Shown here: positions 7,892-8,262 of the stretch, piece after piece
Numbering within the stretch: position 1 is the stretch's first letter
Layout: every line of letters begins with the position of its first letter
Source of the DNA: an uncultured Actinomycetota bacterium
GTDB taxonomy: Bacteria; Actinomycetota; Geothermincolia; Geothermincolales; RBG-13-55-18
NCBI GenBank assembly: GCA_964592775.1
Contig: CAZQFX010000041.1
Span: 1 to 19,080 of the forward strand
Length of the DNA: 19,080 bases
Direction: 5' to 3'
Notes under the pieces: model-generated
Told to the model about the DNA's origin: nothing
The model's database searches: none
Seen by the model: only the letters and a program-made list of their open reading frames with translations
Translations under genes and position numbers: made by a program

Positions 7892-8185
7892 TCATGATCG
7901 GCCACGGCACTCCTCCTGCGCGATTATGTCCTTCATCATCGGCCCCAGGACTTCCCTTACCATCTCGTTCAGCGACTCGGCCTTGATAAGGGTTATGCAG
8001 CAGACCTCCCCATCCCTCTCGTGGCTCACCACGGCGAGCTTGTCGCCGGCGCCGATGCCCGCGCGCACCCTCAGGTCCTTGGGGAGGATCATCTGCCCCC
8101 GCTCGTCGACGCTCAGGACCGACTCGACCTTGGAGGTGGCCTCCTCGCGCGAGGGGGCACAACAGGTCTCTTCCTTCTTGCTCAT
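7892..8185 (-). CDS. AbrB/MazE/SpoVT-family DNA-binding protein with two vicinal Cys pairs
   Basis: This is the C-terminal 97 codons of the otherwise spurious ORF 7892-9523. Start ATG 8185 has GGAAGGG with a 7-nt spacer. The swapped-hairpin signature SVDERGQMILPKDLRVRAGIGAGDKLAVV is present. Cys-Cys pairs occur at residues 9-10 (ETCCAP) and 62-63 (GEVCCITL), plus a C-terminal Cys (EECRGRS). Confidence 0.85.
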   Translation of the reverse strand: MSKKEETCCAPSREEATSKVESVLSVDERGQMILPKDLRVRAGIGAGDKLAVVSHERDGEVCCITLIKAESLNEMVREVLGPMMKDIIAQEECRGRS

Positions 8186-8233
8186 AAGCATACCCTTCCA
8201 TCTCAGTATTTTCTGTATATTCAATCTCTGCTG

Positions 8234-8262
8234 ATTATTTATCATATAGCCCGTGATGTCAA
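8234..8262 (-). promoter_or_regulatory. Sigma-70-like promoter for the abrB-like/hgcA/hgcB unit
   Basis: Minus-sense TTGACA (plus 8257-8262), a 17-nt spacer, then AATAAT (plus 8234-8239). It sits in the only AT-rich tract of this region and predicts a leader of about 40-45 nt to ATG 8185. Confidence 0.45.

Follow-up and report, generated by a model that had tools for sequence, protein, structure and literature searches.

The control of hgcAB expression and the purpose of HgcAB are open questions in mercury biogeochemistry. The one hgcAB regulator that has been tested pointed to arsenic: it is an ArsR-like protein of Pseudodesulfovibrio mercurii ND132, responsive to arsenic and encoded in one transcript with hgcAB (Gionfriddo et al.). 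A gene of the PrlF/MazE/AbrB type (COG2002) has been described directly upstream of hgcA, where it occurred in 14 of 35 contigs with hgcAB and in 8 of 31 genomes of confirmed methylators (6 of the 8 archaeal), and was proposed as a putative, mainly archaeal, hgcAB regulator of the toxin-antitoxin type (Zhang et al. 2023, ISME Commun, PMC10349881). Here we describe a gene of this kind, hgcC, which precedes hgcA and hgcB in a stretch of 19,080 nucleotides (the window) from an uncultured Actinomycetota bacterium (contig CAZQFX010000041.1) and encodes a cysteine-rich protein of the AbrB/SpoVT fold. As judged from gene neighbourhoods, conserved cysteines and upstream DNA, the HgcC family is probably a shared metal(loid)-responsive switch for hgcAB and for arsM, the arsenite methyltransferase gene.

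The gene of Zhang et al. belongs to the same family, its Methanocella paludicola protein reading ...PPCCQ...VDERGQMVMPKELR...GDVCCISLIK, and NCBI already holds the family under the name HgcC (NF040962). The original prediction for this DNA, made from its letters alone, took the hgcAB regulator reported so far to be ArsR-like, which is out of date, and suggested a different regulator class for hgcAB, an idea pre-empted by PMC10349881 and by NF040962. An AbrB-type hgcAB regulator is thus a known idea, whereas the linkage to arsM, the cysteine hallmarks and a defined operator were not found in the literature searched, where no paper linked an AbrB/MazE-type gene to arsM and none used the name HgcC. 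In Methanocella paludicola SANAE a genuine AbrB-type VapB gene, paired with a PIN VapC gene, stands immediately upstream of the HgcC-family gene (PMC10349881, supplementary file 12); this pair may have encouraged the earlier toxin-antitoxin label.

The HgcC protein, its family and its neighbours

The hgcC open reading frame lies on the reverse strand and ends at a TGA at 7894-7892. Two ATG codons, at 8191 and 8185, could start it. The Shine-Dalgarno sequence GGAAGGG (8193..8199, reverse strand) is 7 nt away from the latter and only 1 nt from the former, and 111 of 120 homologues begin at the Met corresponding to 8185, so the gene was assigned to 7892..8185. The resulting 97-amino-acid protein, MSKKEETCCAPS...VDERGQMILPKDLRVRAGIGAGDKLAVV...DGEVCCITLIK...KDIIAQEECRGRS, ends in EECRGRS. 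It matched the NCBIfam model NF040962, "HgcAB-associated protein HgcC", with 117.5 bits (E 1.6e-34, cutoff 70) and the AbrB model TIGR01439 with 29.8 bits (cutoff 28.3), in agreement with the AbrB-type product of 97 residues first predicted. Against Pfam PF04014 (MazE_antitoxin) it scored 23.0 bits, under the cutoff of 24.7, and no Pfam or NCBIfam match to a winged helix of the ArsR type (HTH_5 or HTH_20) was obtained. Its closest named relatives come from metagenome-assembled genomes of Actinomycetota, Ca. Geothermincolia and Ca. Anoxymicrobiaceae, and a bacterial promoter model is therefore appropriate for this locus.

The predicted structure was in concordance with the domain models. The core of the AlphaFold2 (AF2) model reached predicted local distance difference test (pLDDT) values of 78-86 (about 80), with the N-terminal CC tail predicted to be disordered, and its top Foldseek matches were SpoVT, AbrB, Abh, Sso7c4, C68 and MazE (probability up to 0.99, root mean square deviation 2.6-3.0 Å over ∼50 residues, target TM-score 0.6-0.73, E-values only 0.04-1). 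The family profile likewise matched the solved structures of SpoVT (2ro5, E 1.3e-4), Sulfolobus AbrB and AbrB. Domain models and predicted fold, the latter with two beta-hairpins and a short helix that make up one half of a swapped-hairpin barrel, thus place the window protein in the AbrB/SpoVT/MazE superfamily, and four polar residues that are invariant in the family, R31, Q33, K38 and R41, fall in the loops by which AbrB contacts DNA.

Two vicinal cysteine pairs characterize the protein, Cys8-Cys9 (codons at 8164-8159) and Cys62-Cys63 (8002-7997). In the 99-amino-acid numbering, the N-terminal pair (positions 10-11) was kept in 112-113 of the 120 best homologues, within an otherwise variable tail, and the core pair (positions 64-65) in all 120; an additional C or CC at positions 19-20 was found in 29 and 65 of these sequences, respectively. 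Both pairs are family hallmarks. The core pair is specific to the HgcC family, since SpoVT reads GEVILK where HgcC reads GEVCCI. The original prediction had also listed a C-terminal cysteine. It is present (Cys93, 7909-7907), but the whole QEECRGRS tail is absent from the homologues and exists only because hgcC reads through the ribosome-binding site and start of hgcA, so that of the cysteine features proposed only the two pairs stand as conserved ones. No in-frame TGA was found at the HgcC cysteine positions across the 80 loci described below, and a selenocysteine within HgcC itself was therefore discarded.

A sequence search of 5.8 billion proteins gave 535 matches, and when 1.84 billion cluster representatives were searched exhaustively with a profile, 346 clusters (50% identity) were retrieved at E≤1e-10. 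The HgcC family is thus compact, well delimited and distinct from generic AbrB. When one genome per GTDB species was scanned, at least 594 genomes contained a relative, the best 80 of which span Actinomycetota, Thermoplasmata, Nitrospirota, Dehalococcoidia, Syntrophobacteraceae, Methanoperedens, Methanoregulaceae and others.

Downstream sequence was available for 78 loci from these best 80, and the next gene was identified by phmmer on open reading frames. It was arsM-like in 49 of the 78 loci, hgcA followed by hgcB in 22, and other or uncalled in 7. All 45 of the arsM-like loci that were checked matched the arsenite methyltransferase model NF008823, the ArsM proteins of L006 and L021, for example, with 352-357 bits (cutoff 263), while two of the 49, L017 and L059, were weak and not of ArsM grade; in L059 the HgcC-family gene is followed by a gene for a small UbiE-like methyltransferase and then by hgcA. 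The arsM-linked members scored 119-133 bits on the NF040962 "HgcC" model. The family is therefore not hgcAB-specific, the name HgcC is misleading for most of it, and the link extends beyond mercury to the methylation of metal(loid)s generally. The HgcC label also sits on arsM-adjacent genes with no hgcA within 4 kb (L006, 3992-5121; L021, 4001-5200), e.g., on the Thermoplasmata contig JBHIFJ010000001.1.

In a neighbour-joining tree the window fell within an hgcA-linked clade of Actinomycetota, and a second hgcA-linked clade was Nitrospirota/deltaproteobacterial. The context has switched several times, because further loci with hgcA nearby (L023/L059, L028 and L078) are nested among arsM-linked members. 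An independent sample of metagenome loci comprised 36 with hgcA, 20 with arsM, 10 contig ends and 14 "other", this last class being mostly hgcA with long N-terminal extensions, or short contigs. The cassettes stand alone amid unrelated housekeeping genes, and neither toxin genes nor other ars genes were found beside them in the contexts examined. Far from being ubiquitous and unlinked to metal or thiol genes, as would have spoken against the original prediction, the family of 346 clusters has hgcA or arsM as the next gene in 71 of 78 loci.

The ArsM proteins of these loci carry an N-terminal SCC-x4-SCCG motif (45-locus ArsM alignment), which resembles both the CCxP...(C)C of HgcC and the C-U/C-x-P of HgcA. 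In two metagenome loci (L150, 641-1300; L151, 672-1331) the next gene encodes a 219-amino-acid Cys-rich predicted membrane protein (...AGCTPGCGSGCNCG...) with no Pfam match, which may be a third kind of metal-related partner.

The promoter of hgcC and a 9-bp-phased array

A single sigma-70-like site was found in the region 6300-8700, where 0.4 would be expected by chance. It consists of a TTGACA −35 hexamer (8257..8262), whose position is conserved in Actinomycetota relatives, and, after a 17-nt spacer, an AATAAT −10 hexamer (8234..8239), both on the reverse strand (11/12 matches). The claim that the only good promoter of this region lies upstream of the abrB-like gene, at 8234-8262, was thereby confirmed.

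An operator-like array follows this promoter on the same strand. It is made up of four 9-bp units, AATCAGCAG, AGATTGAAT, ATACAGAAA and ATACTGAGA (8201..8236), the family unit being WWTCWGAWW. In a position-weight scan it was the top-scoring four-unit array of the whole window on either strand (z 6.2). By 3 nt it reaches into the 3' end of the −10 box; from there it extends over the predicted transcription start and the early 5' untranslated region and stops just short of the Shine-Dalgarno sequence. In an alignment with relatives whose proteins are 70-88% identical, conservation begins at the −35 box, with none upstream of it, and takes in the promoter and all four units, in phase.

Similar arrays were observed upstream of almost every family member, as two to six palindromic WWTCWGAWW units arranged head to tail every 9 bp. 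The statistics were obtained from 80 loci, the window and 79 from GTDB species representatives. In their upstream DNA (8 kb in all), 151 CWGW pairs had a spacing of exactly 9 bp and 107 a spacing of 18 bp, as against 0-3 at 7, 8, 10 or 11 bp; shuffled sequences averaged 1.2 of the 9-bp pairs and never exceeded 8, and the remainder of the loci gave 0.23 pairs per kb. At least one 9-bp pair was present in 72 of the 80 loci. Arrays of at least three phased sites numbered 58 within 130 nt upstream of the gene versus 3 elsewhere in 573 kb. The pattern was replicated in the independent metagenome loci, 70 of 75 of which contained such pairs, with 123 pairs at 9 bp and 0-3 at the neighbouring spacings.

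The placement of the arrays relative to the promoter was also regular. Bacterial arrays follow a near-consensus TTGACA-17-TATAAT promoter, their median start being −1 nt relative to where the −10 box ends (interquartile range, −9.5 to +3), and archaeal sites bracket the TATA box, e.g., CAGA-aaagtttaaatatt-CAGA. Since the CC-AbrB gene is the only gene common to all of these loci, across two domains of life and two downstream enzymes, the simplest reading is that the array would be that gene's own operator. The suggestion that the gene might be autoregulated gains support from this conserved, operator-like element on its promoter. The family-specific arrays also lend indirect support to DNA binding by a dimer or tetramer, the obligate form in the AbrB/SpoVT/MazE superfamily.

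The hgcC-hgcA-hgcB unit and other features of the window

The 106 nt between hgcC and the previously assumed start of hgcA (7891-7786) had been taken for a GC-rich, non-coding spacer without a promoter. This was refuted: the stretch is coding sequence for an N-terminal Cys-Sec extension of HgcA. The hgcA frame is open from a GTG at 7905-7903, preceded with 6-nt spacing by the Shine-Dalgarno sequence AGGAGG (7917-7912), and the full gene occupies 369 codons at 6796..7905 on the reverse strand (NF040863, 389 bits). Read from this GTG, the stretch gives MADHEDTPAITGDCAEAPCRTEPAVC-U-GPPETAGPADLEG-MGVTT, with VC-U-GPPET at the junction, an in-frame TGA at 7825..7827 being read as selenocysteine (Sec27) in the motif C-U-G-P. 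The promoterless spacer was thus an artefact, because the UGA had been read as a stop and the hgcA start had been miscalled.

The same reading in the relative L001 gives MTDHEDVTTMGCGCAVNPDRARKDAC-U-GPPETAGPADLGG-IGVATSR, and TG[CT]-TGA-GGC-CC followed by a GC hairpin is kept in six relatives of the same clade as the window (L001, L002, L003, L010, L014 and L042). Other clades carry CC where the window has C-U, as in SCCGP, SCCAP and GCCEGP. The hairpin after the UGA (7786..7823, reverse strand) resembles a selenocysteine insertion sequence, with the core stem CCGCGG-GUC-CCGCGG at 7811-7797. Its folding energy was −22.3 kcal/mol, with a z of only −1.4 in this GC-rich context, and 5 of 10 consensus pairs were compensatory across the seven loci in an ungapped alignment. 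Neither sel genes nor a tRNA-Sec were found within the window. The CU extension of HgcA has already been published, with the motif ...APC-U-GPRPD (Haft & Gwadz, bioRxiv 10.1101/2022.07.06.499078). Public gene calls miss the Sec start as well, the hgcA of L083 being called at 320 amino acids behind a 127-nt gap; gene callers still truncate HgcA at the Sec codon and thereby create false intergenic spacers.

With this correction hgcC, hgcA and hgcB follow one another on the same strand with overlaps of 14 nt at each junction, hgcB (6540..6809, reverse strand; a ferredoxin ending in CC; NF040864, 99.3 bits, cutoff 99) overlapping hgcA at 6809-6796. The hgcA start codon lies −14 to +11 nt from the hgcC stop in 7/7 loci (the window and the six relatives), and intergenic distances in the relatives range from −14 to +18 nt. 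The three genes form a single translationally coupled unit. Co-transcription, which had been suggested from the supposed spacer, is made more likely by genes that overlap rather than being spaced, and is supported by the lack of a second promoter-like site in 6300-8700. An independent hgcA promoter or an RNA element in 7891-7786 was rejected: the stretch is coding, and searches there returned no promoter-like site, Rfam match or TCWGA array. An exact 11-mer, ATCGCCCGTTA, occurs both just after hgcB (6502-6512) and inside the region for the HgcA extension (7867-7877). As a meaningful repeat it was discarded as probably due to chance, given the other exact 11-12-mers in the same GC-rich region and the coding nature of its second copy.

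Divergent from hgcC lies a gene for a URO-D-family (MtaA-like) methyltransferase (8651-9724, forward strand), which also adjoins hgcC in the closest relative, L001 (2707-3720, 579 bits), and was not beside hgcC in the other loci examined. Its product could work with HgcA in corrinoid methyl transfer in this lineage, or the arrangement could be mere synteny. A TetR-family regulator gene (5823-6434, forward strand) is convergent with hgcB, and an unrelated TetR gene stands upstream of the arsM-linked L021 cassette; no conserved linkage of the TetR gene with the family was found among the loci. Further along, a c-di-GMP-II-GAG riboswitch (RF03169, 5616-5700, reverse strand; 55.6 bits, gathering score 40) is located ∼50 nt upstream of a gene (5565-3337) for a 742-amino-acid signal-peptide protein with no Pfam match.

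A candidate metal(loid) switch and its relation to known regulators

We propose, with a probability of roughly one in two, that HgcC would act as an autorepressor of hgcC-hgcA-hgcB which sits on the array until a thiophilic metal(loid) occupies its thiols. HgcC oligomers would bind the tandem 9-bp-phased TCWGA array (8236-8201). Since this array extends over the start of transcription and into the −10 box, their binding would block RNA polymerase at the strong promoter. A metal(loid) bound to the conserved cysteines, i.e., to the CC pair or pairs of the tail and the CC of the last beta-strand, would relieve the repression. One speculative route to DNA release would be that the tail becomes tethered to the core CC, across the face that binds DNA. 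A putative operator placed across the −10 box and start of a strong promoter, or on both sides of a TATA box, is in keeping with a repressor whose release depends on a signal. That this signal would be a metal(loid) we infer from the cysteine pairs by the DNA-binding fold, from the ArsM and HgcAB neighbours with their CC/CU tails, and from the precedent of strain ND132. As(III) would be the more likely ligand, since arsM contexts outnumber those of hgcA in the GTDB species sample, and Hg(II) would be possible.

Several observations weigh against this reading. The array of the window is degenerate, with a strict CWGA core in only two of its four units (units 1 and 2 read TCAGC and ATTGA), and the strict pattern CWGW-N5-CWGW-N5-CWGW has no match in the window; the strict pattern misses the array because of these two degenerate units, and it was placed by the position-weight scan and the alignment with relatives. 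About 7% of the close homologues lack the N-terminal CC. This pair is found in only 76 of 124 divergent cluster representatives, 12 of the 124 being without any N-terminal Cys, and the core CC in 101 of 136, about a quarter having a single Cys, mostly the second. Two of the four key arginines of AbrB are unmatched (an invariant Gln stands in place of R15, and R24 falls at a variable position), and the mean isoelectric point of the family is near neutral (6.7-7.3). The AF2 model is that of a monomer, of modest confidence (overall pLDDT 67.9). Hg(II) as the inducer is argued against by reports that hgcAB transcription is not inducible by Hg in model strains.

The operator, promoter and fold evidence would be equally compatible with an autorepressor on the same TCWGA array whose cysteines bind an Fe-S cluster, act as a redox or oxygen switch or are purely structural, so that the operon would be redox-responsive or self-buffered. 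The carriers are all anaerobes, with four to six Cys in each monomer a dimer could bind a cluster between its subunits, and some divergent members without N-terminal cysteines still keep the fold. We nevertheless regard this as unlikely, given that the downstream enzymes are almost only two, both with thiophilic metal(loid) substrates, and that the Cys motif of HgcC copies the N-terminal CC motifs of ArsM and HgcA. Vicinal CC pairs are, moreover, typical As(III) and Hg(II) ligands, as in ArsR, ArsD, MerT, MerA and HgcB, and are unusual in Fe-S regulators. The likeness of the CCxP tail to the C-U/C-G-P of HgcA and the SCC...SCC of ArsM would also suit a protein that mainly handles metal(loid)s, its CC pairs taking up As(III) or Hg(II) and delivering it to the CC/CU tail of HgcA or ArsM in the manner of ArsD, with a secondary regulatory role or none. 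The NCBI name puts the protein in the Hgc system, and translational coupling to the enzyme gene suits a stoichiometric partner. However, the fold is known only from DNA-binding regulators, a single family would need to partner two enzymes of unrelated structure, and the gene is always first, behind a strong promoter and a family-specific array that a pure chaperone would not need; such a role seems improbable, slightly more so than a redox or Fe-S switch.

The reading of Zhang et al. (2023), an antitoxin of a type II toxin-antitoxin module (PrlF/MazE) that would adjoin hgcAB by chance, can draw on the KEGG and COG labels PrlF/AbrB in PMC10349881 and on the sub-threshold MazE_antitoxin match. 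It was rejected as extremely improbable: no toxin gene occurred in any context examined, the next gene is nearly always hgcA or arsM, the upstream gene is unrelated or on the opposite strand, and in the window the neighbours are hgcA and the divergent URO-D-family gene.

For the proposed metal(loid)-released autorepressor, the arsM linkage, the cysteine hallmarks and the defined operator together make a thiol-based switch of the AbrB fold a concrete, testable hypothesis, and a bench test is now direct, since the protein and the 36-bp site are defined and the candidate ligands few. More tentatively, and at somewhat less than even odds, HgcC would be the founding member of a new structural class of metal(loid) sensor: a repressor of the AbrB fold, shared by Bacteria and Archaea, that responds to As(III)/Hg(II) through its thiols and acts through 9-bp-phased TCWGA arrays on arsM and hgcAB. 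If so, arsM and hgcAB would be under one kind of switch, and hgcAB would be part of a metal(loid) stress response rather than an accidental activity.

The comparison with described systems locates this candidate switch more closely. The window protein is a member of NF040962 standing directly before hgcAB, but that model spans residues 20-88 only and so omits the N-terminal CC tail, and its name implies hgcAB specificity with no function attached. PMC10349881, for its part, does not describe the cysteines, the arsM linkage or the operator, and the family, mainly archaeal there, is here wide in Bacteria and has no toxin partner. The DNA-binding fold is shared with AbrB, Abh and SpoVT of Bacillus and Sso7c4 of Sulfolobus, which lack conserved cysteines at the HgcC positions and have no known metal ligand. 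AbrB prefers TGGNA-N5-TGGNA, and MraZ binds tandem TGGGN direct repeats ∼10 bp apart on the promoter of its own operon; the TCWGA-N4 arrays resemble these sites in layout and differ in their 9-bp period and palindromic TCWGA core. ArsD, first described as a repressor, binds As(III) through vicinal Cys pairs (Cys12-Cys13 plus Cys18). Unlike HgcC, this metallochaperone and weak repressor has a thioredoxin-like fold and a mid-operon gene, and no sequence relation between the two was detected.

The closest parallel is with ArsR. The genes for ArsR proteins also stand first in arsM operons, and these proteins sense As(III) via Cys triads, often with a vicinal pair. The ArsR-like regulator of ND132 is likewise encoded by the first gene of its hgcAB transcription unit, but its fold is a winged helix, whereas that of HgcC is a swapped hairpin, so that HgcC would be its analogue and not its homologue. 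A second, structurally unrelated family of putative regulators heads arsM or hgcAB in many anaerobic phyla of both domains and independently ties mercury methylation to metal(loid) responses of the arsenic type; HgcC would have the role that ArsR has in other arsR-arsM and arsR-hgcAB operons.

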